DNA from: Nannocystales bacterium
GTDB lineage: Bacteria > Myxococcota_A > Polyangia > Nannocystales > Nannocystaceae
Assembly: GCA_050633305.1 (NCBI GenBank)
Contig: JBOEGF010000010.1
Span: 256,001-320,000 of the forward strand
Length of the DNA: 64,000 nucleotides
Reading direction: 5' to 3'
Shown here in pieces: positions 1,910 to 31,588 of the stretch. Position 1 is the first letter of the stretch. The number at the start of each line of letters is the position of its first letter. The position numbers were made by a program, and so were the translations under genes. Below the pieces are notes generated by a model. The model was not told the origin of the DNA. It was given only the letters and a program-made list of their open reading frames with translations, and made no database searches.

Positions 1910-3868
1910 TCATGGTGCTCCATTCGGAGGCGAGACGCGAGGTGCCCACCGTCGGTCCAGGACACTCTCACCGTCGTCCCCACCACAGACGTGCCCGCCA
2001 GTGCGGTCGACGTACGCGAAACGCGTTCCGTCCTCGGACCAGCTCGTGCCGTGCAAGCCCTGGGCGCGTCGTACCCAGACCCGGGCGTTGCGCTCGGTGT
2101 CGATCATCGTGAGGTGAGCGTCCCTCGAGGTGAACACGCTCCGGTGTTTCTGGAGCACGACGCTACGATCTCCGGTGGAGGTCGGAGCGGTGCCGAAGAT
2201 CTCGACCGGACGCAGGTGCAGTGCGGCCATCTCGTGCCCGAGCCCGGCCATCCAATCGGTGCTCTCCCATCCGCGAGGTTTGCCACCTTCGGGCCAGCTC
2301 GTTCGCTCCGAAGAGTTCACGGCTTGAACCGATCCCAGCTTGCCCTCTTCGACGGCGAGGATCTGCAGCGGCTCGGAGGGGCGGCTCGAGGCGAGGACCA
2401 CGTGACCTCCGCGTTCTTCCGGCCGCCATCCCGCGTGTTCGATGCCCCACACGACAGGAATCGTGGCGGTGTCGAGGACAGTATCGGTTTCGATCTGGCG
2501 GACCTGAACGTGGCCGGCGTTGTCCAGGGTCACCAGATGCTCTTCGCCTGCGAACGCCAGTAGGCGTGGTGCGCCGGCCGTTGGTGCAAGGCGGCGCGTC
2601 TCGCCTGTGCCATCGACGGACTCGACGATGATCTCATCGCCAGTTCCCCAAGCCACGGTGCTTCCGGTGGGGCTCAGACCGACCGCGTAGGCGGCCAGTG
2701 GCTGTCCTTGCATGAGCGTGGGCGAACTCCCATGGACGCTCTGAACCCGGAAGGCGTCGCCCCATGCGGTCGCATGCATTCCCCCGCGGGCGGTCGTGTG
2801 CATCAGCGAGAACTCGTTGGAACCATCATAGGAGATGGTGGCCGCGGCGACCGGTACCAGCGTGGAGCGGTCGGTCCCCGAATCCCAGGGGACCGCGGCG
2901 CTCAGCGGGAGGCGTAGCGCCTGGCCGGACCCCGTCTCCGCAATGATCTCGTCCGCGAACGGATGCACACGGGGGCGGAAGCGGGTGTCGGACTCGCCGA
3001 CGAGCATGCGGCGCGTGCCGTCGTGCAGGTCGACCACCTCGATCTCAAAACGTCCTTTCTTCGGAAGCGGCTTCTGCATTGCCGTCGCGTAGCGGCCGTC
3101 GGCGCTCATACCGATGTCGTTGCGGTTGGGGCTTTGGTCGATCGCGAGGGTGTGCGGCTCGCCCTCGAGGCTGAGGGCGTCGTCGGAGATCTCGAGTCGC
3201 TGCATGCGAACCGGAGCGAATTGGACGACCGCCGCGTGTGTCTGGCCCTGGGCATCGTGCCCAATGCGCAGCTGCCACGGGATCACGCCGTGTTCGTCCA
3301 ACTCGGCCAAGATCTTGCCGTTCGTGTTCCACAGCCGCACGCGGTGGTCGACACCGAGCGCAAGGATCCGCGTTCCGCCACTGAGGACGTGAACTTCGAA
3401 CATTGGGTCGATGGGGGAGAGGTCGAAGGCCGTTGTCCAGCGTGCGCCGGTCTCGGTCACGTAGATCCTCGCGATGTGCGTGCCGCCGCTGGTGTCGATG
3501 AACGCCGCTACAAACCCTGACTCGGTGGCGGCCAGCGACATCCACGAAGGTTCCTCGACGGGCAACGTCCAGGGGAGCGCGTCCGATTCGAACGACGGCC
3601 ATAGGCGGACGCCTCCCTCGACGTCGAGCGTGAGCGCGGAGCCCCCTTCCGGGGACAGGACCACCTCGTGCATCGAGGCATCGTGTCGAGCGGCGACGAG
3701 TGCCACCGAAGGCATCGCAGTGGCCTGCGGATTCTCGGCTGCGGGCGCCGTGGGCGTGTCGGTTTGGGGGACGGACTTGGTTCCGGGGCCACTGGTGCTC
3801 GTTTCGGTCACCGTGTTGACACAACCGGACGCAAGCACGGCGAGGGAGGCGAGAAGTCGAGCGTTCAT
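1910..3868 (-). CDS. WD40/beta-propeller lipoprotein
   Basis: Lipobox LASG-C; repeated blades VVLSPEG..ALTLD..GGVRLW, LGVDHRVRLWN, LSPTGSTVAW. Confidence 0.75.
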   Translation of the reverse strand: MNARLLASLAVLASGCVNTVTETSTSGPGTKSVPQTDTPTAPAAENPQATAMPSVALVAARHDASMHEVVLSPEGGSALTLDVEGGVRLWPSFESDALPWTLPVEEPSWMSLAATESGFVAAFIDTSGGTHIARIYVTETGARWTTAFDLSPIDPMFEVHVLSGGTRILALGVDHRVRLWNTNGKILAELDEHGVIPWQLRIGHDAQGQTHAAVVQFAPVRMQRLEISDDALSLEGEPHTLAIDQSPNRNDIGMSADGRYATAMQKPLPKKGRFEIEVVDLHDGTRRMLVGESDTRFRPRVHPFADEIIAETGSGQALRLPLSAAVPWDSGTDRSTLVPVAAATISYDGSNEFSLMHTTARGGMHATAWGDAFRVQSVHGSSPTLMQGQPLAAYAVGLSPTGSTVAWGTGDEIIVESVDGTGETRRLAPTAGAPRLLAFAGEEHLVTLDNAGHVQVRQIETDTVLDTATIPVVWGIEHAGWRPEERGGHVVLASSRPSEPLQILAVEEGKLGSVQAVNSSERTSWPEGGKPRGWESTDWMAGLGHEMAALHLRPVEIFGTAPTSTGDRSVVLQKHRSVFTSRDAHLTMIDTERNARVWVRRAQGLHGTSWSEDGTRFAYVDRTGGHVCGGDDGESVLDRRWAPRVSPPNGAP

Positions 3869-5841
3869 CAGAGGGTCTCCAGGTAGGCGACGAGGTCGTG
3901 GGCTTGCGGTGAGGTCAACTCGGAGAAGTCAGCCATGTCGTGGACGCTGCCCTTGTCCGTGACGAGCGCCCACAGGTCGACCGCGCTTCCATCGTGGTAG
4001 TAGGGCGCCGTGTGGGCCAGTCCTTTGAGGGATGGCGTGTCCGTCTCTTCGAGCCCCCACGCGTCGAATGGATACTGGTTGCCGTCTGCCATCGCCTCGC
4101 CCGCATGGCAGGCACTGCACTCGAGCGTGTCTTCGAACAGGCTCTTGCCGCGCTGTACGGCGGATGCACTCGCGACGGTTGGACGGGTGGCCGTGGGCAG
4201 CCATCGCACGTAGGCCGCGAGGTCATCCCGTTCGCTGCGGCTCAGTGACGAGCCTCCGAGTCTTTCGATCGTGTGCTTGAAGCTCTTGTTCAAGGTCGCG
4301 TCGAGACCACCCCACTTGTAGGGCTCCGTCCCGCCGAGCCGTCCGGCCAGCATCGGCGTTTGAAGGATGGCGCCGCCCAGTCGCCAGCTCAGCCCATCTT
4401 GTCGACCCTCGGGGTGGCAGGAAGCACAGGCCATGGTGCCGCTGTCGGAGATCTGGCTCGACTCTCCCCGTCGAAACAGCTCCGCCCCGCGCTCGACTGA
4501 CTCGCCCCTTTTTGATGCGGCCAACTCGGGGCCCACGGAGACCGCGGACTCGGTATGCCAAGGCTTGTCATCCAGCTTCAACTGATCGGGTCTCACCCGA
4601 AGCAGCTTTCGGCTGAGCTCGCAGTGCACCCACAGCGTTCCGCCGTCCACGACCATGCCGTCCGCTCCGCACGCGTTGTTGCCCGTGTCCCGGCGTCGGT
4701 GCATCCGCCATGCGCTGTAGGCCGAAGGCAGTGAGACATCCGAGATACCGACGATGTCGTCGTCGCCGTATCCCGCGACGTAGAGCCGGTCGAGACTGGC
4801 GTCGTAGGCCATCGCCCGTGGCTGGTGGACGTGCTGTAGCTTCGACACCTGGACCTTGGCCTGTCCCGCGACGCGAGGGGAGACGACGGCAAGTCGGTGG
4901 TCGATGGGCGGCACTTCCTGTGGGCCGCCGCCGTAGCTGTCCTGCATGCCCCGAGAGGGCACACGTCTCATTTGAGGGGTCGCGACTTGGTGCGGCGCGA
5001 CGACCTGGCCATGCCCGACGTACGCGACCGAGAACACGTTGCGTGCGTGTCTACGGCCCTGGTCGGTCGGGACCGAGAAACGACTACGTGCCTCGGAGAT
5101 ACTGGCTACCGGGATCTTCCCGTCGCCCCAGTCGTCGAACTCCATCTCCACCTTCACGTGGTCGCGGGGGTCGAGGGCGTGCCAGCGCACCGTCTCGCCG
5201 TTGGTATCGAGGTAGACCTCTGCGAGGGCGCCGGAACTCAGGAACCCCACCGTGGCGCGCGTTCCGTCGGTCGACACCGCGATCCCGCGCGGCTCGGCCC
5301 GGAGTTTTACGGACCAGGCCTCCTTCATCGTTTTGGTGTCGAAGGCGATCAGGGCGTGGTCCGCGACGCTGGTGACATAGACCGTCGCACCGTCGGGGGA
5401 GAGGCCCAGTCCATACGGCTCTGCGACCGTCACGCTCGTGTCCTCGAGGAGGCTGTCGTCTTGCGAGGTATCGAGGCGAACCAGTCGGTTGCCTGCTCGG
5501 TCCGCCACGAACGACAGCGCGTCTCCGTCTGTCACCAACTCGCCCAACGTCCCTGCAAACTCGAGCGCCGCCACTGCTTCGCCGTTGCGGTCGGCTCGGA
5601 TCACGGCAGCCGCGTTGCGTTCGGCGACGAGGAGTCCGTGTGTATCGAGAACCACCGTTCCCCCGCGGTGCCCCACATGGGGGGCGTCCGTCGGAAGGGT
5701 GACTGCGCCGCGACGAGCGTTCGTCGCGGCCAGCGCTTCAAGATCCCGCGAGGCAGAGTAGTCGTGGGCCTGAGCACCGCCTACGACCCCCGCCACCAAG
5801 AGCAAACCCGCCGCGCTTCCTGCCCACGTCTTGCCATGCAT
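3868..5841 (-). CDS. YVTN-type beta-propeller fused to a di-heme cytochrome c peroxidase-like domain
   Basis: Signal peptide; blades EPYGLGLSPDG, EPRGIAVSTDG; heme motifs CASCH and CSACH; TPSL...TAPYYHDGS; start taken at MHGKTW. Confidence 0.85.
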   Translation of the reverse strand: MHGKTWAGSAAGLLLVAGVVGGAQAHDYSASRDLEALAATNARRGAVTLPTDAPHVGHRGGTVVLDTHGLLVAERNAAAVIRADRNGEAVAALEFAGTLGELVTDGDALSFVADRAGNRLVRLDTSQDDSLLEDTSVTVAEPYGLGLSPDGATVYVTSVADHALIAFDTKTMKEAWSVKLRAEPRGIAVSTDGTRATVGFLSSGALAEVYLDTNGETVRWHALDPRDHVKVEMEFDDWGDGKIPVASISEARSRFSVPTDQGRRHARNVFSVAYVGHGQVVAPHQVATPQMRRVPSRGMQDSYGGGPQEVPPIDHRLAVVSPRVAGQAKVQVSKLQHVHQPRAMAYDASLDRLYVAGYGDDDIVGISDVSLPSAYSAWRMHRRRDTGNNACGADGMVVDGGTLWVHCELSRKLLRVRPDQLKLDDKPWHTESAVSVGPELAASKRGESVERGAELFRRGESSQISDSGTMACASCHPEGRQDGLSWRLGGAILQTPMLAGRLGGTEPYKWGGLDATLNKSFKHTIERLGGSSLSRSERDDLAAYVRWLPTATRPTVASASAVQRGKSLFEDTLECSACHAGEAMADGNQYPFDAWGLEETDTPSLKGLAHTAPYYHDGSAVDLWALVTDKGSVHDMADFSELTSPQAHDLVAYLETL

Positions 5842-6002
5842 CTCACTGTGAATGCGTGAGCAGCGGGGACACATTCCCGCACCGCTCACGCGCGGGACGA
5901 TTTCGTCCGGGCGCGAGGGGGCGCCCGGGAATCAGCGAGCCGCGCGGACTGAGCCGCCAAGCGGATTCGACCGCGCTTGTTCTGGAGCGTCGGTGTCGAA
6001 GC

Positions 6003-23286: not shown

Positions 23287-23370
23287 ACTTCCCGCGGATT
23301 CGACTTATGTGTGGTCGGCACCCCCCGCTGACCTTGAAGTGCGACACGCTCAGCAGGTATCTGCAACGTG

Positions 23371-24393
23371 ATGGAGGCGCGGCAATCTCGGTATGACATC
23401 CCAGCGTACACCGAGGGGTGGTTTCAGATCGCATGGACGAAGGACTTGGGTCGTGGCGAACTCAAGAAGGTGCGGCAGTTCGGCCACGACTACACGCTCT
23501 TCCGCGGCCAAGACGGCAAGGTCGGCCTGATCGACGACGTCTGTCCGCACCTGGGCGCACACTTCTCCGAAGGCGGGTGCGTCAAGGGCAACGCGGTGCG
23601 CTGTCCCTATCACGCGTGGAAGTTCGATCGCTCCGGTGCGTGCGTCGAGATCCCTTACGCAAAGAAGATCCCGAAGAAGGCCAAGGTCGGCTCCTACACG
23701 GTCGTGGAGAAGCACGGGCTGATCTTCATGTACCGGGACAAGGCTGGCACCCGACCCGACCCCCAACTCCCGCCGATTCACGATTTCCACGTCGGCGACT
23801 ACGTTGAAGCCTCGACCTACGAGTTCAAGATCCGCATCCACGGGCAGGACATCATGGAGAACTCGGTCGACAGCCCGCACTTCGCGGCCGTCCACGGGCA
23901 TGCAATGCCCACCAACGACTTCTTCACCGAGAAAGACGAGCTTCGGGTCGACCAGACCTCGTCGGTGCATCGGTTCGGTCAGACGCTGCACTTCAAGATC
24001 GAATTCCACATGGTGGAGCCCGGGTTCCACTACCTGTACTTTCCCAAGCTCCCCGGCGGCGAGGCGTTCGTGTTCAGCTCGATCGTCCCCGTGGATGAGG
24101 AGTTCACCAACCATCGTCTCACCGTGATGGTCAAGCGGAGCCGGATCCCCGGCTACTCGAGGATCCTGCAACGGTTCATCACCTGGCAGATGATGAAGAC
24201 CTACAAAGAAGACATGCAGATCTGGGAGCACAAGGAGTATCACTCGCGCCCCGTGCTCTGCGACGGCGACGGGTCGATCATGAAGCTGCGCAAGTGGTAC
24301 GCGCAGTTCTACGAGCCTCAGGACGACGCGCCGTCAAGTACCGCGAAGCGGTCCCACGCGCTGGGTGTCGTCTCGCCGGTGCAGGACTCGTAG
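23371..24393 (+). CDS. Rieske non-heme iron oxygenase, KshA/Neverland (steroid-acting) type
   Basis: CPHLGAH...CPYHAW Rieske ligands; ENSVDSPHFAAVH Fe site; C-terminal DMQIWEHK...PVLCDGDGSI...RKWYAQFY. Confidence 0.85.
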   Translation: MEARQSRYDIPAYTEGWFQIAWTKDLGRGELKKVRQFGHDYTLFRGQDGKVGLIDDVCPHLGAHFSEGGCVKGNAVRCPYHAWKFDRSGACVEIPYAKKIPKKAKVGSYTVVEKHGLIFMYRDKAGTRPDPQLPPIHDFHVGDYVEASTYEFKIRIHGQDIMENSVDSPHFAAVHGHAMPTNDFFTEKDELRVDQTSSVHRFGQTLHFKIEFHMVEPGFHYLYFPKLPGGEAFVFSSIVPVDEEFTNHRLTVMVKRSRIPGYSRILQRFITWQMMKTYKEDMQIWEHKEYHSRPVLCDGDGSIMKLRKWYAQFYEPQDDAPSSTAKRSHALGVVSPVQDS

Positions 24394-25159: not shown

Positions 25160-26248
25160 TCAGTGCAGCTGCGCCGTCGCGCCTTCGAACAACGCCACAG
25201 TTTCCTCTTCGGGCATCCGTCTCAGAGACAACAATGCCGACGCCTCCGTGGCCGCAGCGAGCTCCGCGTTCGCCGTCGTGACGATCCACTGCACACGTGG
25301 AAGCGTCGCTCGTAGCGTGCTCACCAGCTCTCGCGCAACCTCGGGGGGTTGATGCAGATCGATCTCATCGATTGCAACAACCCCTGTCGAGGTCCGTGGA
25401 TCCTGTCCGGGATAGGCCGCCCAGAGCATGCGCACTGGAATCGTGGCGATCGTCAGTAGGTGACGAACGTGGTTCGGCAGTCGGTCGAAAATGCAGACAT
25501 TGCCCGCCGGAGTGGTGAACGACGGTTCGAGCGAGACCGGGTCGACGCCATCGTAGGCGTACCCGACCAGGTCGAGGACGGCGCCTATCGCGTCGCGCAT
25601 CGCGTTGCCCAACAGACGTGTGTCCCAGGGACGGGTGCTGGACTCACGCAGGCGGTTGCGTTCGCGCTGCGTGCTGGGGGCGACCGCGGAGGAAACCTCG
25701 GCGTACGCGATCGCGAGCTTGGTGTCTCGGGTGCTCTCGGAGCGCGAGGCGTCGTCGAAGGTGGACGACGTTTTGACGTCGTAGTGCGCCACTGTGCGCA
25801 GGGGGGCGTGGAGTGACACCGCTTGGGGCGAGTACCACCGGGCCGCAGGAATCACGGTGAAGACAAAGCCTCCGCGTTCCTTGGCCTGCTTGTCGAACAT
25901 CGCTTGTTCTCTTCGCTGCAGTGCGGAGGCCTCTTCGTCGGGTCCGCGAGTTCGCATGTTGGGGGTGCAGACCACCAGAGGGTGTGGGCGCTCTGGGTCG
26001 TCGTCGCCCAGGTGCCAGTGACACATGGCCTGGGCTGGAGCGGTGGCGCCAGGCATCGAACGCCCGAGCAGGGCAACTGCGTGTCCAGGGCGAGTGGAGG
26101 ACAGCACCCGCAGCAGCGCGGTCTTGCCGACTCCACCGGCCCCATGCACCACGGTCACCATCCGGGGCTCACCGTCGATGTCACAGAATGGCACGTCCAG
26201 GGTGCCGAACGGTGACACGCCGAAGAGCTGAGCCCGAGTCAGATACAT
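25160..26248 (-). CDS. AAA_21/ABC-type ATPase with degenerate motifs
   Basis: Walker A GAGGVGKT; Walker B VVAIDEIDLH; QWIVTT. Confidence 0.75.
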   Translation of the reverse strand: MYLTRAQLFGVSPFGTLDVPFCDIDGEPRMVTVVHGAGGVGKTALLRVLSSTRPGHAVALLGRSMPGATAPAQAMCHWHLGDDDPERPHPLVVCTPNMRTRGPDEEASALQRREQAMFDKQAKERGGFVFTVIPAARWYSPQAVSLHAPLRTVAHYDVKTSSTFDDASRSESTRDTKLAIAYAEVSSAVAPSTQRERNRLRESSTRPWDTRLLGNAMRDAIGAVLDLVGYAYDGVDPVSLEPSFTTPAGNVCIFDRLPNHVRHLLTIATIPVRMLWAAYPGQDPRTSTGVVAIDEIDLHQPPEVARELVSTLRATLPRVQWIVTTANAELAAATEASALLSLRRMPEEETVALFEGATAQLH

Positions 26249-26267: not shown

Positions 26268-27008
26268 TCACCGGACGCTCATGCTGATGATGCGGGTGAG
26301 CAGCGGAAACTCGGCGAGATAGGCTTCACCGTCGGTACTGAGCTTCCCCTGAGACGGGCCTCGTCCTCGGGGACCTCCTTCCCCGTAACCCGTGTAGATC
26401 TGGTCCACGATGTCCATGCCCTCGACGACGTGCCCGATCGGAGTGAACCCCATGGTGTCCAGCTGAGGGTTGTCAGCGAGGTTGATGAACAGCTGCGTCG
26501 TCGCGGTGTCGGGCTGAGAAGTCTTGGCGAAGACGACCGTTCCCCGGAGGTTCGAGGTGGTCACGGGGTCGTCAGAGATCGTCGCGGACTTCCACAACCG
26601 ATTCACCTCGGGGTCTCCGTGGACACCGAACTGGACCATGAACCCTGCGATCGCCCGGTAGAACGTTGCGTTGTCGTAGTAGCCAAGCATCGCGAGGTTG
26701 TAGAAACGGTGGGCGCCATGCGGTGCTTGGTTGCTGTCCACACGGATGACGAACTTCCCCACGCTGGTCTCGACGGCTGCCTCGTAGTGTGGAGGCGGCT
26801 GGAGGGTCGCGTTCTCGGGATGGGGTCGGGGCCTAACCGCGGGGGGCGCAGAAGCGGGCGCTGCTCGGGCCGGGGCGGGCTGGGCGTCGGCGGCTCGCGC
26901 CAGCCGGGGTTCCGCGGGCGCCGCCGGGGGAACCGGACTCGGAGCCGGTGTCGGCGGGGCGCTTGTGCAGCCCGAGAATGCGAGACAGAGCAGCCCCAAG
27001 CGACGCAT
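26268..27008 (-). CDS. Cyclophilin-type peptidyl-prolyl isomerase lipoprotein
   Basis: Lipobox FSG-C; FYRAIAGFMVQFG, RGTVVFA, ATTQLFINLADN. Confidence 0.92.
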   Translation of the reverse strand: MRRLGLLCLAFSGCTSAPPTPAPSPVPPAAPAEPRLARAADAQPAPARAAPASAPPAVRPRPHPENATLQPPPHYEAAVETSVGKFVIRVDSNQAPHGAHRFYNLAMLGYYDNATFYRAIAGFMVQFGVHGDPEVNRLWKSATISDDPVTTSNLRGTVVFAKTSQPDTATTQLFINLADNPQLDTMGFTPIGHVVEGMDIVDQIYTGYGEGGPRGRGPSQGKLSTDGEAYLAEFPLLTRIISMSVR

Positions 27009-27115: not shown

Positions 27116-27835
27116 GTGTCTTTCCTTGCTCATCGCCGGTTTCGCCGAGCTCACGCGTTGCTCCTGTGCACGTTGTGGCTCGTCGGATTCGAGATTGGGC
27201 CGGGCCTACATGTCGCGCTCCACTCCGTCATCGGGCACCACCACCATGGCCCCGCGACGGCTGCGCACGAGCACCCGCGGACAGCGGCTGCGGTCGACCG
27301 TGGAGAGGCGGAGCATCACGAGCACGCGCACCGCGAGGGCTCGCACCATGGGGACGAGCCCTCGCACCATGAACACCACGGGCACGAACCCGCGCACCAT
27401 GGGGACGAGCCCTCGCACCACGGGCACCATGGGGACGGGAGCTCGCGCCATGGACACCACGGGGATGAGCCCGCGCACCACGGGGACGAGCTCTCGGATG
27501 GCCACGATGAGCCCGAGGCGCACCATGCTCATGCCGCGGTCGAGGAACACGTCGGGGTCGAGGAGCAGGCCGCCACCGACGATGCTCCCGAGCATCCAGC
27601 GCCGCTGTTGGGTCGTGAAGACGAGGCAGCCGTCGCTCGATGTCTCAACGACCCAAGCCACGGCGCACATGCTTTCGTCCACCGTGGGACGGCGGCGAGC
27701 CCCACCCCGGAAGCATGGCCACCCGTTGCGGCGGCTCCGTGGGTCTACCTGAGCCGAGCTTCGTTCGCGCTCGAACCGATTCGCTCTCGAGCACCGCAGT
27801 GTGTGCGTGCGCGGGGCCCTCCGAACCTGAGCTGA
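27116..27835 (+). CDS. His-rich leader protein with an N-terminal hydrophobic segment and a C-terminal RGPP motif (putative arrest peptide)
   Basis: GTG 27116 (start inferred); basic and hydrophobic N-terminus; HHGDEP repeats; ends RARGPPNLS-stop. Confidence 0.7.
   Translation: MSFLAHRRFRRAHALLLCTLWLVGFEIGPGLHVALHSVIGHHHHGPATAAHEHPRTAAAVDRGEAEHHEHAHREGSHHGDEPSHHEHHGHEPAHHGDEPSHHGHHGDGSSRHGHHGDEPAHHGDELSDGHDEPEAHHAHAAVEEHVGVEEQAATDDAPEHPAPLLGREDEAAVARCLNDPSHGAHAFVHRGTAASPTPEAWPPVAAAPWVYLSRASFALEPIRSRAPQCVRARGPPNLS
27342..27492. repeat. Degenerate tandem repeats encoding HHGDEPS/A units
   Basis: Recurring gcacca(t/c)gggga(c/t)gagcc units. Confidence 0.8.
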
Positions 27836-27889
27836 ACAACCCAGCTCATTTTCTGACGACTCCACGCTTTTCTCGAGAGGGGGGCTTCC

Positions 27890-28675
27890 ATGTACGGAAC
27901 CCGCTTTTGGATCGCATGCACCGTTCTGTCGTGCACTGCGGCCTGTGATTTAGAGACATCGCTTGCGCCTCGCGTCGACCTCGACGTGGTGGTGCAGGCC
28001 ACCGAACACGCATTTTCCACCGAAGACACACAGATCGAACTGACGGAGGCCCGGCTGGCCCTGCAAACCGTCGAGTTCACGACCGAGGGCGAAATGCACG
28101 CTCGTACGGGCCTGCTTCCAACCCTGCACGACCTGGTCGTGCCCACCGCCATCGCGCACCCTGGGCACAGCGCAGGGGGGGAGGTCGTCGGCGAGTTGGT
28201 CGGTCGACACGTCGTCGACTTCCTGGACGCCGGCTCGAGCATCGGCACCGCAACGCTGTTGGATGCTCACTACTCCGGGGCGAACTTCACCTTCATCACC
28301 GCCGAGGCGTCGGACGGCTTGGCGGCCGACGACCCACTCCTCGGCCACACGTTTCTGCTTGCTGGAACGGCGAGGCGCGAAGGGGACGAGGTTCAGTTCG
28401 TCGCGTACGTCGACCAGGACGAGGACCGCTCGATCATCGGCCTACCGCTGAGCTTCACGGCAACGGAAAGCTCAATCGAGCAGCTCGCGCTTCGCTTCGA
28501 CGCGGTGGATCCGGTTGAAGGCGACACGATCTTCGCAGACATCGACATCGTTTCGCTCGATGAAGACGGCGACGGGTTCGTGGAAATCTCGGCCGAGGAG
28601 AACTCCGAAGCCTGGGCCAACCTCCGACGTAATCTGCAAGTCCATGACCACTACGCGGTGGAGGTGGTCGAATGA
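27890..28675 (+). CDS. Lipoprotein with an AHPGH motif, putative metal-binding (possibly MbnP-like fold)
   Basis: Lipobox TAA-C; EMHAR and AIAHPGHSAGGEVVGEL; acidic beta-rich; purine-rich RBS. Confidence 0.7.
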   Translation: MYGTRFWIACTVLSCTAACDLETSLAPRVDLDVVVQATEHAFSTEDTQIELTEARLALQTVEFTTEGEMHARTGLLPTLHDLVVPTAIAHPGHSAGGEVVGELVGRHVVDFLDAGSSIGTATLLDAHYSGANFTFITAEASDGLAADDPLLGHTFLLAGTARREGDEVQFVAYVDQDEDRSIIGLPLSFTATESSIEQLALRFDAVDPVEGDTIFADIDIVSLDEDGDGFVEISAEENSEAWANLRRNLQVHDHYAVEVVE

Positions 28676-29451
28676 AGCGCATGTTCGTGATCGCAGGCCT
28701 GCTGCTGTGCGCATGTGACGATGCCTCCGACGGCGAGGGCACACTTCGAGTCACCGCGTGGGGTGAAGCGTTCATCGAGGAGGGCATTCCTGAGGATGCC
28801 TTCGTGGACGGCTGGAGCGTGACGTTTGATGCGTTCGTCGTTTCGGTCGGTGCCATTGACGCCCAAGGGGCTGCGTTGCCGGGGACGTACGTGGTCGACC
28901 TCGCTCGGCCCAGCGGAGGCGCGGGCCAAGAACTCGGACCGCTGACCGTTCCGGCTGGGCAAGCTCCAGCCTTGTCGTGGTCGCTCGTCGCGGCGAGCGG
29001 GGACGCGGTCACCGACCTGGACGGCGACGTGCTCGACGCGATGGTGGGCGCGGATGCTTCGATCTGGGCTCGGGGCGTCGCGACGCGGGGGAACGAAGTG
29101 AAGACCTTCGATTGGGCGCTGGACGTCCCGGCCACCTACGTGGACTGCGACCCCGGCGTCTCGGTCGGGACAGACCAGAGTACCGACGGTGTGCTGACGG
29201 TGCACGCGGACCACCTGTTCTACGACGACCTGGACTCGGAGGAGCCTGGTGTCGCGTTCGATCTCATCGCGGCCTCGGATGCCGACGGGGACGGCGCAAT
29301 CACGATGGCTGAACTGCGAGCGCAGAGTCTCTCGGGTCAGACGCGTTACCAGGTGGGCGGCCGAGACATCGCGGACCTGCACGGGTTCATCCTCGCGCAG
29401 GCTCGGACGGTCGGTCACATCAACGGAGAAGGGCACTGCGAGATCGAGTGA
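28672..29451 (+). CDS. Lipoprotein with His motifs, putative metal-binding
   Basis: ATGA overlap; lipobox LCA-C; LTVHADHLFYDDL, EF-hand-like DADGDGAITMAEL, GHINGEGHC. Confidence 0.7.
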   Translation: MKRMFVIAGLLLCACDDASDGEGTLRVTAWGEAFIEEGIPEDAFVDGWSVTFDAFVVSVGAIDAQGAALPGTYVVDLARPSGGAGQELGPLTVPAGQAPALSWSLVAASGDAVTDLDGDVLDAMVGADASIWARGVATRGNEVKTFDWALDVPATYVDCDPGVSVGTDQSTDGVLTVHADHLFYDDLDSEEPGVAFDLIAASDADGDGAITMAELRAQSLSGQTRYQVGGRDIADLHGFILAQARTVGHINGEGHCEIE

Positions 29452-29488
29452 TCCCGCCGCTGCCTGACCCCGTACCCATGATGAGCCG

Positions 29489-31588
29489 ATGATCGGTTGG
29501 ACCCTCGCAGCGGCGATCGCAAGCCGCATTGCCCACCCCCCCGCGGACGTGCCCACAGAGCCCGTCCCCGTGGAGGAGATCGGTGCGCCCGCGGACGACT
29601 CGGACGCAGGAACGGTGCGAGAAGTGATCGTGCACCGGGAAGCCGATCAGCTCAGCGCGAGCGCGGTGACCGTAGGACGCCGCGAGATCGACACGATGCC
29701 CAAGCGCGGCGCAGAGGATCTTCTGCGCCACATTCCGGGCATGCACATCGTGCAACACGGCGGGCAGGGCAAGGGCTACCAGTTCTACCTCCGCGGTTTC
29801 GATGCGGTCCACGGTGCAGACGTCGAAACCAAGCTCGGCGACGTCCCGATCAACGAGGCGTCCAACGTGCACGCGCACGGCTACCTCGACCTTTCGTTCA
29901 TCATCCCCGAGGCTGTCGAGGGGGTCGATGCGACGAAAGGGTCGTACCGCCTCGAGCAGGGCAACTTCGGCACGGCGGGCAGCATCCGATATCGACTCGG
30001 TGTGCCGCAGCGCGGCACGCGGGCCACGTACGAGTTTGGCTCAACCCTCCGCCACCGTATCTCACTGGTGCACGCCCCCGAGCGCCGCGGCAAGGAGACC
30101 TTCCTCGCCTTCGAAGCGATGGACGACCAGGGCTACGGGCAGCGTCGACACGCCCAACGTCTGAGCACCATCGGGCAGGCGCTGCTCTACAAGGGACGAG
30201 GGACCACCGTCACCGCGATGGGGGCGCTGTATGGCGCCCGGTTCGAGCTTCCCGGAACGGTTCGTCTGGACGACGTGCGGCGTGGAGACGTCGGCTTGTA
30301 CGACAGCTACACCGACGACTCCGTCGGTGAGTCCGCGCGCGCGATCGCCTCGATGCAGGTCAAGACCAACCGCGGCCGTGTGCGCTCTCGGACGTCCGCG
30401 TGGGTCCAGGCCCGCCGCTTCTCGCTCGATGAGAACTTCACCGGGGACCTGCTGTTCGAGGAGATCGGCGACCGCCACCGCCAGCTTCATGCTGCCGTCA
30501 GCCCGGGTGTCTCGACCCAGCTCGACATCCGCGTGCATCCTCAAGTCGAGATCCCGGTCCACGCCCGGTGGCAGGTGGACATCGCCGAGCAATCGACCGA
30601 CCAACTCACGGCGGAGGGCCGAACCTGGGATACGCCGCGAGACCTCGCGTTCGTGCAGCACGGACTGTCGTTGGGCACAGGCGTTCGCACGACGCCGACG
30701 TCATGGATGATGTTCGAAGCGGGGGGCCGGGTTGACGTCTTTGCCACTCAGGTTCGCGACCGGATCCAGGAGCGCGACTTCGGTGGGGCGAGGGCCGCTG
30801 TCTCTCCCCGAGCGATGACGAAGTTCATGCCCTTCGATCGCTGGCAGCTTTTTGCCGCTTATGGCCGAGGCGTGCGGTCGCCCGAGGCACGGGCGTACAC
30901 GCTGCCCACCCAAGCCGTGGAGAACGAAGACCTCAGCCGATACGCTGGTGGTCAGGCGCGCGTCACCCAGAGCGACAGCGTCGAGGTCGGAACGCGCGTA
31001 CAGCCCGGGATTCTCGATGTCGGCGTCGCCGGGTTTGGCACCTGGATCGATCGCGAGTCGGTGTTCGACCATGTTTCGGGCTTCAATGTCGAACGCTCGG
31101 CAACCCAGCGGCTCGGCGTCGAGGGCGACGTTCAGCTACACCCCACCTCGTGGCTCGACTTTGGGGCGGACGTCACCTGGGCGCGCGGGCGCTTCGTCAG
31201 CAGTGGCTCCCCGATCCCCGGGGCCCCTCCGCTCATCGTCACCGCGAAGGCCTCCATGGCGCATCCCAAGGGATTCCGTGCAGGGGTCCGGTGGTTCTTG
31301 CTCGGTGCGCGGCCGCTGAGCTACGGCGCTGTCGCGGCCCCGGCCACAGTCATGGATCTGAATGTCGGGTATCGCTATCGCTGGGCGCAGCTCGACCTGT
31401 CGATCGACAACGTGTGGAACCAGCAGTGGCGGGAGGGGGAGTACCACTTCGCCTCGCACTGGGGCGCGGACCGGCCGCGCAGTCAGCTCCCAACGGTGCA
31501 TGGGGTTGCGGGCAATCCGTTCACCGCCCGCGTTGCGCTGACGCTGCACTTCGATGCGATGGGACGAAACAAATCCTCGGGCCGGTAA
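29489..31588 (+). CDS. TonB-dependent outer-membrane receptor (probably metal uptake)
   Basis: Plug EDLLRHIPGMHIVQHGGQGKGYQFYLRGFDAVHG, NVHAHGYLDL, KGSY...GNFGTAG; barrel strands; IDNVWN. Confidence 0.9.
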   Translation: MIGWTLAAAIASRIAHPPADVPTEPVPVEEIGAPADDSDAGTVREVIVHREADQLSASAVTVGRREIDTMPKRGAEDLLRHIPGMHIVQHGGQGKGYQFYLRGFDAVHGADVETKLGDVPINEASNVHAHGYLDLSFIIPEAVEGVDATKGSYRLEQGNFGTAGSIRYRLGVPQRGTRATYEFGSTLRHRISLVHAPERRGKETFLAFEAMDDQGYGQRRHAQRLSTIGQALLYKGRGTTVTAMGALYGARFELPGTVRLDDVRRGDVGLYDSYTDDSVGESARAIASMQVKTNRGRVRSRTSAWVQARRFSLDENFTGDLLFEEIGDRHRQLHAAVSPGVSTQLDIRVHPQVEIPVHARWQVDIAEQSTDQLTAEGRTWDTPRDLAFVQHGLSLGTGVRTTPTSWMMFEAGGRVDVFATQVRDRIQERDFGGARAAVSPRAMTKFMPFDRWQLFAAYGRGVRSPEARAYTLPTQAVENEDLSRYAGGQARVTQSDSVEVGTRVQPGILDVGVAGFGTWIDRESVFDHVSGFNVERSATQRLGVEGDVQLHPTSWLDFGADVTWARGRFVSSGSPIPGAPPLIVTAKASMAHPKGFRAGVRWFLLGARPLSYGAVAAPATVMDLNVGYRYRWAQLDLSIDNVWNQQWREGEYHFASHWGADRPRSQLPTVHGVAGNPFTARVALTLHFDAMGRNKSSGR

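Follow-up and report, generated by a model that had tools for sequence, protein, structure and literature searches.

What does a histidine-rich open reading frame (ORF) ending in Arg-Gly-Pro-Pro do in front of two unannotated lipoprotein genes and a gene for a TonB-dependent receptor (TBDR)? The question is raised by four co-oriented genes at 27116..31588 of the 64,000-nucleotide stretch from a Nannocystales bacterium that was analysed here and is referred to below as the window. A preliminary description had noted these genes, their histidine motifs, the RGPP motif at 27812..27823 and a gap of 54 nt before the second gene, all of which we find as described in the sequence (and, for the TBDR, with Pfam). 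The reading that we favour, with a probability of about 0.55, is that the first ORF is a leader which would stall its own ribosome at RGPP, sense nickel through a pair of histidines 43 residues from the stall site, and so control a nickel-import cassette of two lipoproteins of predicted MbnP fold and the TonB receptor, kept on when the metal is scarce. Beneath it lie a family of such leaders, a fixed distance between their H-x6-H pair and R[AG]PP, their position at the head of the cassette, and nikR genes or NikR boxes at related operons which lack the leader.

The leader ORF (27116..27835, plus strand like all features of the cassette) encodes 239 aa and begins with GTG at a position matched by start codons in the aligned loci L001 and L003-L005. 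Behind a basic start lies a hydrophobic segment (27155..27199), a putative signal or membrane anchor whose pattern is conserved in the alignments, followed by an N-terminal histidine motif, P29-x2-H32-x3-H36-x5-H42-x-H44 (27200..27247). Among 21 aligned sequences P29, H32 and H36 are invariant and H42 and H44 occur in at least 90%. A variable tract of histidine and acidic residues (27224..27658, 145 aa with 34 His) then leads to the pair H182-x6-H189 (HGAHAFVH, 27659..27682), both of whose histidines are invariant. The 43-residue spacer which follows (27683..27811) is conserved in length, variable in sequence and free of CxxC, and ends at the RGPP motif (27812..27823; R, P and P invariant), after which only NLS precedes the stop codon. 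Across 42 leaders the motif is RGPP in 28 and RAPP in 14.

Relatives were collected as a set of 80 loci, the best of at least 90 confirmed, which were fetched with the lipoprotein 1 alignment and are mostly from Myxococcota. A phylum sample of 301 genomes (20 with the leader and 281 others) was also used; its NikR counts were taken by hand, and kin are not independent. Before leaders were counted we dropped L029 (RGPP without the His motif), short ORFs in L058 and L078, a 12-aa ORF in L032 and the weak genome matches G187 and G217. A terminal R[AG]PP is by itself no more than chance in a GC-rich genome: 233 six-frame ORFs of the window's genome end in this way, and two control motifs give 192 and 279. 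A chance origin of the leader is excluded because it is conserved among relatives; an upstream His-rich ORF ending in R[AG]PP, the check that the preliminary description had put forward, is found in 26 of the 80 loci. In seven close orthologues the last 59 codons align without gaps and contain 27, 31 and 3 invariant columns at codon positions 1, 2 and 3 (hand count), and selection therefore acts on the leader protein. Judged by this conservation, the leader is a real protein family. In L002, L022 and L028 its N- and C-terminal motifs stand in different frames with the break inside the tract, reflecting assembly indels or real frameshifts.

The most constant property of the family is a distance. 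When spacers of 30-60 residues were allowed, H-x6-H and R[AG]PP were separated by 43 residues in 22 of 25 leaders. In a profile of 42 leader ORFs, taken from loci preselected as leader loci and with no His criterion in the profile, histidine stands at -44 in 28 and within -43 to -46 in 41, again at -51 in 28 and at -52 in 10 (38 together), and at any position from -1 to -42 in at most 5. The distance from His to R[AG]PP is 42-46 residues across 42 leaders; the choice of ORFs for the stall simulation mentioned below (42 loci) favoured the candidate nearest to 43, and the spacing claim rests on the other two counts. This recalls CruR (Bp2923, DUF2946/PF11162) of Bordetella pertussis, for which 45 residues between CxxC and RAPP are described as conserved to 1-2 residues and functionally required, a 5-residue insertion spoiling regulation (PMC9426467). 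Like CruR, as described there, the leader is the first gene of a TBDR operon and carries a putative metal motif at a fixed distance (43 as against 45 residues) from a terminal R[AG]PP, and its basic and hydrophobic N-terminus may likewise be of export type. It differs in having H-x6-H for CxxC, an additional N-terminal His motif and a long variable tract, in the lipoprotein pair of its operon, in the likely metal (nickel rather than copper) and in a lineage in which Rho was not found. The window's leader has no match to PF11162; the L074 leader reaches 19.1 bits along the full length of the model, for which the cut-off is 23.7, and DUF2946 is an Atlas neighbour at rank 20. A remote kinship with DUF2946 is likely, since this one short member scores just under the cut-off. 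RGPP and RAPP motifs are reported to arrest ribosomes, arrest by CruR having been demonstrated in vitro (PMC12992588), and we consider the leader very probably an arrest peptide which acts in cis and responds to metal. Of the CruR-like circuit proposed in the preliminary description, the RGPP leader at the head of a putative metal-uptake cassette (two lipoproteins with His motifs, and a TBDR) thus stands; the poly-His tract as a substitute for CxxC probably does not, as discussed below.

The leader keeps company with the cassette through rearrangements. Of the 80 loci, 76 have lipoprotein 2 and 74 have the TBDR; the genes occur in several orders, and contig ends account for some of the misses. 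The 26 leaders precede the TBDR in 8 loci and lipoprotein 1 in 18. Among these 18, the TBDR lies downstream or beyond the contig end in 8, is divergent in 8, and in 2 stands upstream of a leader that separates it from lipoprotein 1. In 8 genomes of the phylum sample the leader heads a TBDR with no lipoprotein match within the fetched stretch.

Which metal is sensed? Nickel is favoured because homologous operons without the leader carry nikR or NikR boxes, while leader loci carry neither. A nikR gene is adjacent in 7 of the 80 loci, directly upstream in six, and none of the seven has a leader; the three adjacent nikR products that were checked all pass the NCBIfam NikR cut-offs. Upstream regions were scored with the 27-28 bp delta-proteobacterial NikR box, with a consensus in which two positions were made degenerate after a first scan and which was then found in PMC545781. 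Of 12 nikR-adjacent loci (four of which belong to one genus) 11 have a box scoring 12 or more of 14; so do 8 of the 47 loci that have neither regulator and 10 of 1500 random windows, and none of the 27 leader loci does. The window's operon conforms, with no nikR in the genome and no NikR box upstream of the leader. None of the 20 leader genomes encodes NikR, as against 64 of the 281 others; among the 80 genomes that have any match to lipoprotein 1 the number is 37. The two types of cassette share their conserved His and Cys residues and fall together in one 55-row clade of a quick tree, which excludes 5 of 81 rows that were short or had no partner. In L075 and L080 the leader is directly preceded by a NiCoT-like gene (NicO E 5e-6, below the cut-off), and a second type of His-rich permease lies directly downstream of it in L036, L046, L057 and L176 (below Pfam cut-offs). 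Hydrogenase, NiSOD, urease or LarC is present in 17 of the 20 leader genomes, the three exceptions being the window's family. The sequence evidence thus makes nickel the most likely ligand, narrowing the earlier proposal of Ni, Zn, Co or Cu through nikR and the NikR boxes.

The cassettes of Nannocystis and Enhygromyxa (L064, L067, L069, L072, L077, L065, L066) have neither a leader nor an adjacent nikR nor a NikR box; these two genera include cultured carriers, as does the leader-bearing Paraliomyxa miuraensis. Distant lipoprotein 1 homologues share the strand of nikR and follow it at about 2.2-2.5 kb (G212:C44, G172:C59, G162:C22, G247:C14, G227:C116), a spacing which leaves room for one TBDR. 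No riboswitch was found upstream of the leaderless operons in the 11 of 47 loci scanned.

The lipoproteins themselves bear on the choice of metal. Lipoprotein 1 (27890..28675) carries AHPGH and conserved C19, H70, H90, H93 and H252; lipoprotein 2 (28672..29451) carries HADH and GHINGEGHC, with C15, C159, H178, H181, H249 and C256 conserved. Sequence searches gave 166 and 696 relatives, respectively, the lipobox Cys is invariant (81 of 81 and 77 of 77 sequences), and the two are paralogues (hhalign 97.8%, E 7e-13). Their AlphaFold models (predicted local confidence, pLDDT, 91 and 94) both have MbnP (7L6G) as best fold match: Z 10.6, root-mean-square deviation (rmsd) 3.9 over 188 aligned residues for lipoprotein 1 (next row 6.1), and Z 9.1, rmsd 3.9 over 186 for lipoprotein 2 (next row 4.9). 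Foldseek E values against MbnP are only 2.7e-3 and 5.2e-3, and no Pfam or hhalign match links either protein to MbnP/PF20243. An MbnP fold is therefore predicted for both from the models. Membership of the MbnP family was considered and ruled out by the lack of a PF20243 match, by the rarity of mbnH (adjacent in 1 of 81 loci) and by the WxW pattern. This motif, which serves the kynurenine copper site of MbnP (PMC11951088), is found in 0 of 81 lipoprotein 1 sequences and is absent from the window's lipoprotein 2; W-x-W occurs somewhere in 11 of 77 lipoprotein 2 sequences. The likeness to MbnP (PF20243, PDB 7L6G), which acts with MbnH in the account of PMC11951088, is thus one of predicted fold and of being encoded beside a TBDR, whereas the pair here differs in lacking a sequence match and a conserved WxW, in its His-rich sites and in being tandem paralogues. 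Prediction of a lipoprotein 1-2 complex gave 0.45 as against 0.00 for the best control, with runs agreeing in 74% of contacts and partner pLDDT of at least 89. Of 157 solved pairs 116 came up to the mark used, as did 2 of 215 mismatched ones; only 18 of the solved pairs, together with both mismatches, did so with scores of 0.60 or under. The models thus weakly suggest a heterodimer.

Several observations weigh against nickel or against the leader as the switch of an importer. The only structural relative of the lipoproteins, MbnP, binds copper. The window's genome (an assembly 92% complete) has no match to urease, NiFe hydrogenase, NiSOD, LarC, HypA, NicO or CbiM, and its two leader-bearing relatives in the same family have no hydrogenase, NiSOD, urease or LarC (the positive control of the NiSOD search was detected only in the later phylum-wide search). 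The nickel-related genes found in the window's genome are ARD, which can use iron, and one gene of HupE/UreJ type. LarC is widespread in any case, with 23 of 40 control genomes carrying it, hydrogenase occurs in 13 of 14 genomes of one genus (g6) with or without the leader, and profiles of nickel enzymes did not separate cassette genomes from background. The exclusion of NikR is phylogenetically clustered, families f1 and f3 being wholly without it, and a single origin of the leader is compatible with the starred branches of the quick tree. In 39 of the 80 loci there is neither leader, nikR nor a box of 12 or more, and in 10 of the 26 leader loci the leader heads lipoproteins only, with the TBDR divergent or upstream.

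The alternative that survives best is a stalling switch of the same kind whose sensed and imported metal in the window's lineage would be zinc, cobalt or copper. The absence of a classical nickel enzyme from the window's family, the promiscuity of His ligands and the copper-binding nature of the MbnP fold all speak for it, as does L033, where a true mbnP and mbnH (3681-5851) lie directly upstream of lipoprotein 1; L033 also carries a NikR-like box scoring 12 of 14. However, the metal-site residues are the same in leader-type and NikR-type cassettes, and the recurring metal genes among the 189 neighbouring ORFs compared with Pfam (134 out of 264 listed, and 55 more) are nikR and NiCoT-like permeases. 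The window's genome also has no CobN, and none of 42 leaders has CxxC or CxxxC 35-60 residues before the Arg. We regard this alternative as unlikely, if a good deal stronger than those which follow.

The fixed spacing bears on two further explanations. The leader might be an export monitor of SecM/ApdP type or an unregulated pause, coupling cassette expression to pulling by the translocon, with the histidines incidental. A hydrophobic N-terminus and RGPP are described as common to Sec monitors (PMC12992588), and all three downstream products are exported, yet five invariant histidines and the constant His-to-RGPP distance speak against it, the downstream genes are neither sec nor yidC, and in the loci examined the leader family occurs solely before the cassette's TBDR/lipoprotein family; we hold this to be improbable. 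Hardly better placed is the version of the preliminary description, in which the poly-His tract itself is the sensor and replaces CxxC. The tract is rich in histidine, and every member of the family has at least four His in it, but among relatives it ranges from 42 to 177 aa with 4-48 His and an unconserved sequence. What corresponds to CxxC is probably the H-x6-H pair and not the tract, because the pair lies at a fixed, CruR-like distance while the length of the tract varies freely. By this comparison the pair, rather than the tract, is the likely metal sensor. Finally, a stable envelope metal store or chaperone acting in trans without cis control, which up to 48 tract histidines and the 10 loci with no TBDR downstream of the leader might suggest, is the least probable of all, given that RGPP is invariant here yet strongly avoided in proteomes (bias 0.29 in Myxococcota in the supplement of PMC12992588), that the spacer keeps its length without its sequence and that short members have few His.

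How might such a leader act on the cassette? The Rho-dependent output of CruR cannot simply apply, because Rho was not found in the lineage. Its RNA-binding domain was found in neither the window's genome nor three sampled family members (0 of 4), and it is missing in 13 of 20 leader genomes, all of these being incomplete assemblies; the best and only full-length TIGR00767 match is a FliI/YscN ATPase. By family, the domain is present in 0 of 4 genomes of f1, 0 of 8 of f3, 0 of 3 of f2 and 0 of 1 of f10, and in all 22 genomes tested outside the class; a class-wide loss is possible. Haliangium ochraceum is reported to be without Rho (PMC11347177).

A 7-bp hairpin followed by UUUU lies over the leader's stop codon (27828..27852; folding z -5.1 in the window) and is a candidate pause site or terminator. 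It is present in 7 of the 7 closest loci, with z from -5.1 to -1.4 and a different sequence in L006. Its 5' arm begins 10 nt after the start of the first Pro codon, a distance at which it lies inside the ribosome footprint. Without metal, a ribosome held on the Pro-Pro codons would cover the 5' arm of the hairpin (27828-27848) and transcription would enter the cassette. Nickel bound by H182 and H189, perhaps together with the N-terminal His motif brought near by the flexible tract, would release the ribosome, the hairpin would form, and cassette expression would fall without Rho; the poly-His tract might serve as a linker or a local metal sink. The lipoproteins may in turn bind the metal through their conserved histidines and pass it to or from the His-lined plug of the receptor. 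Against this mechanism as a general one, the hairpin was not above shuffles in five distant leader loci, its U-tail occurs in the closest loci only, and Rho is present in 7 of the 20 leader genomes. Attenuation by the stop-codon hairpin is our best guess for the output in the window's clade; other clades may differ.

Other RNA structures were considered. The element GACTCCACGC (27858..27867) is complementary to the A-R-G-P codons, and RNAalifold gives the pairing nine pairs, two of them with both sides changed in one sequence. The minimum-free-energy fold pairs the RGPP codons with the Shine-Dalgarno sequence of lipoprotein 1 (z -1.6), which lies at 27875..27884 and has GG.GGG conserved in 7 loci. 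Simulated stalling in 42 loci, with start codons picked automatically and in several cases doubtful, opened the ribosome-binding site in 13, closed it in 10 and left it unchanged in 19 (+1.4 kcal/mol in the window); with no consistent change, CutF-like sequestration of the Shine-Dalgarno sequence finds no family-wide support. In 32 of 42 loci the intergenic sequence has more C than G (hand count, uncontrolled).

Of the four cassette genes of the window, Pfam and NCBIfam name just the TBDR (29489..31588; Plug E 1e-11, barrel E 3e-20). Its plug carries QHGG, AVHG and NVHAHG, and the three plug histidines concerned (QHGG, VHG, VHAHG) are conserved in 72, 73 and 73 of 75 sequences. No close solved relative was found, the plug giving weak matches to BtuB only. 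Divergent from the leader lies a cyclophilin gene with a Pro/Ala-rich exported N-terminus (26268-27008, minus strand). Beyond it are an AAA-type ATPase (25160-26248, minus strand) with a weak C-terminal match to the retron effector PtuA (E 3e-11, far below the cut-off), which also occurs near the cassette in L001-L003, and a Rieske KshA-like oxygenase (23368-24393, plus strand). In L082 (2605-3744; G000:C36), in the same genome, a leader that contains Cys and has a terminal RAPP heads an outer-membrane efflux gene (OEP, E 3e-13), close to a second paralogue of lipoprotein 2; this leader is likely of CutF/CzcI type. A cobalamin riboswitch in L012 (1449-1659) precedes ribonucleotide reductase and is unrelated to the cassette.

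The system has known relatives, and its novelty is smaller than the preliminary description had supposed. RAPP/RGPP upstream ORFs before TBDRs are reported across Gram-negative bacteria (PMC12992588), the leader belongs to the same general class, and at least one member of its family, MCB9656136.1, stands in the RAPP list of that work as an unannotated row; the His-pair family, the spacing rule, the nickel link and the lipoprotein partners are not described in the parts of it that were available. His-only CutF-like leaders of clusters 14 and 17, upstream of HupE/UreJ, have been suggested to bind Ni/Co (PMC9973294). By their description rather than by motif, they resemble the leader in being Cys-free and His-rich, with a terminal Pro motif and a predicted Ni/Co link, but they head HupE/UreJ and come from a survey of proteins under 150 aa, whereas the leader's target is the TBDR-lipoprotein cassette and its nickel link comes through NikR. 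CutF is presented as a periplasmic copper sensor of opposite polarity (10.1101/2025.02.05.636593). On the NikR side, NikR-repressed nickel TBDRs such as Helicobacter FecA3/FrpB4 are known (PMC11247825), and these, with the delta-proteobacterial NikR regulon (PMC545781), share with our leaderless operons a NikR and box upstream of an outer-membrane importer; the latter regulon covers nikMNQO-type transporters, and the likeness of the cassette TBDR is one of arrangement only. A literature search, in which few subscription papers were covered, found neither a nickel arrest peptide nor an account of the cassette. In the parts of the literature compared, metal-sensing arrest peptides are demonstrated only for copper, and the way in which a bound metal frees or retains the ribosome is described there as an open question. 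The leader system is real and CruR/CutF-like; what we add is the ruler, the exchange with NikR, the paired lipoproteins of predicted MbnP fold and the missing Rho.

A wider proposition, which we advance tentatively, is that a nickel-sensing arrest peptide took over from NikR in NikR-less lineages, reads the metal through a His pair at a fixed distance, acts free of Rho and controls an undescribed nickel importer with an MbnP-fold heterodimer in which histidines stand in for the kynurenine copper site. With its ruler fixed at 43 residues and a tract of freely variable length, the Cys-free leader family offers a clean test of how metal acts on the stalled ribosome, and the NikR swap gives an independent prediction of the ligand. 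If the proposition is true, two unannotated lipoprotein families would gain a function, and the MbnP fold would no longer be confined to copper.

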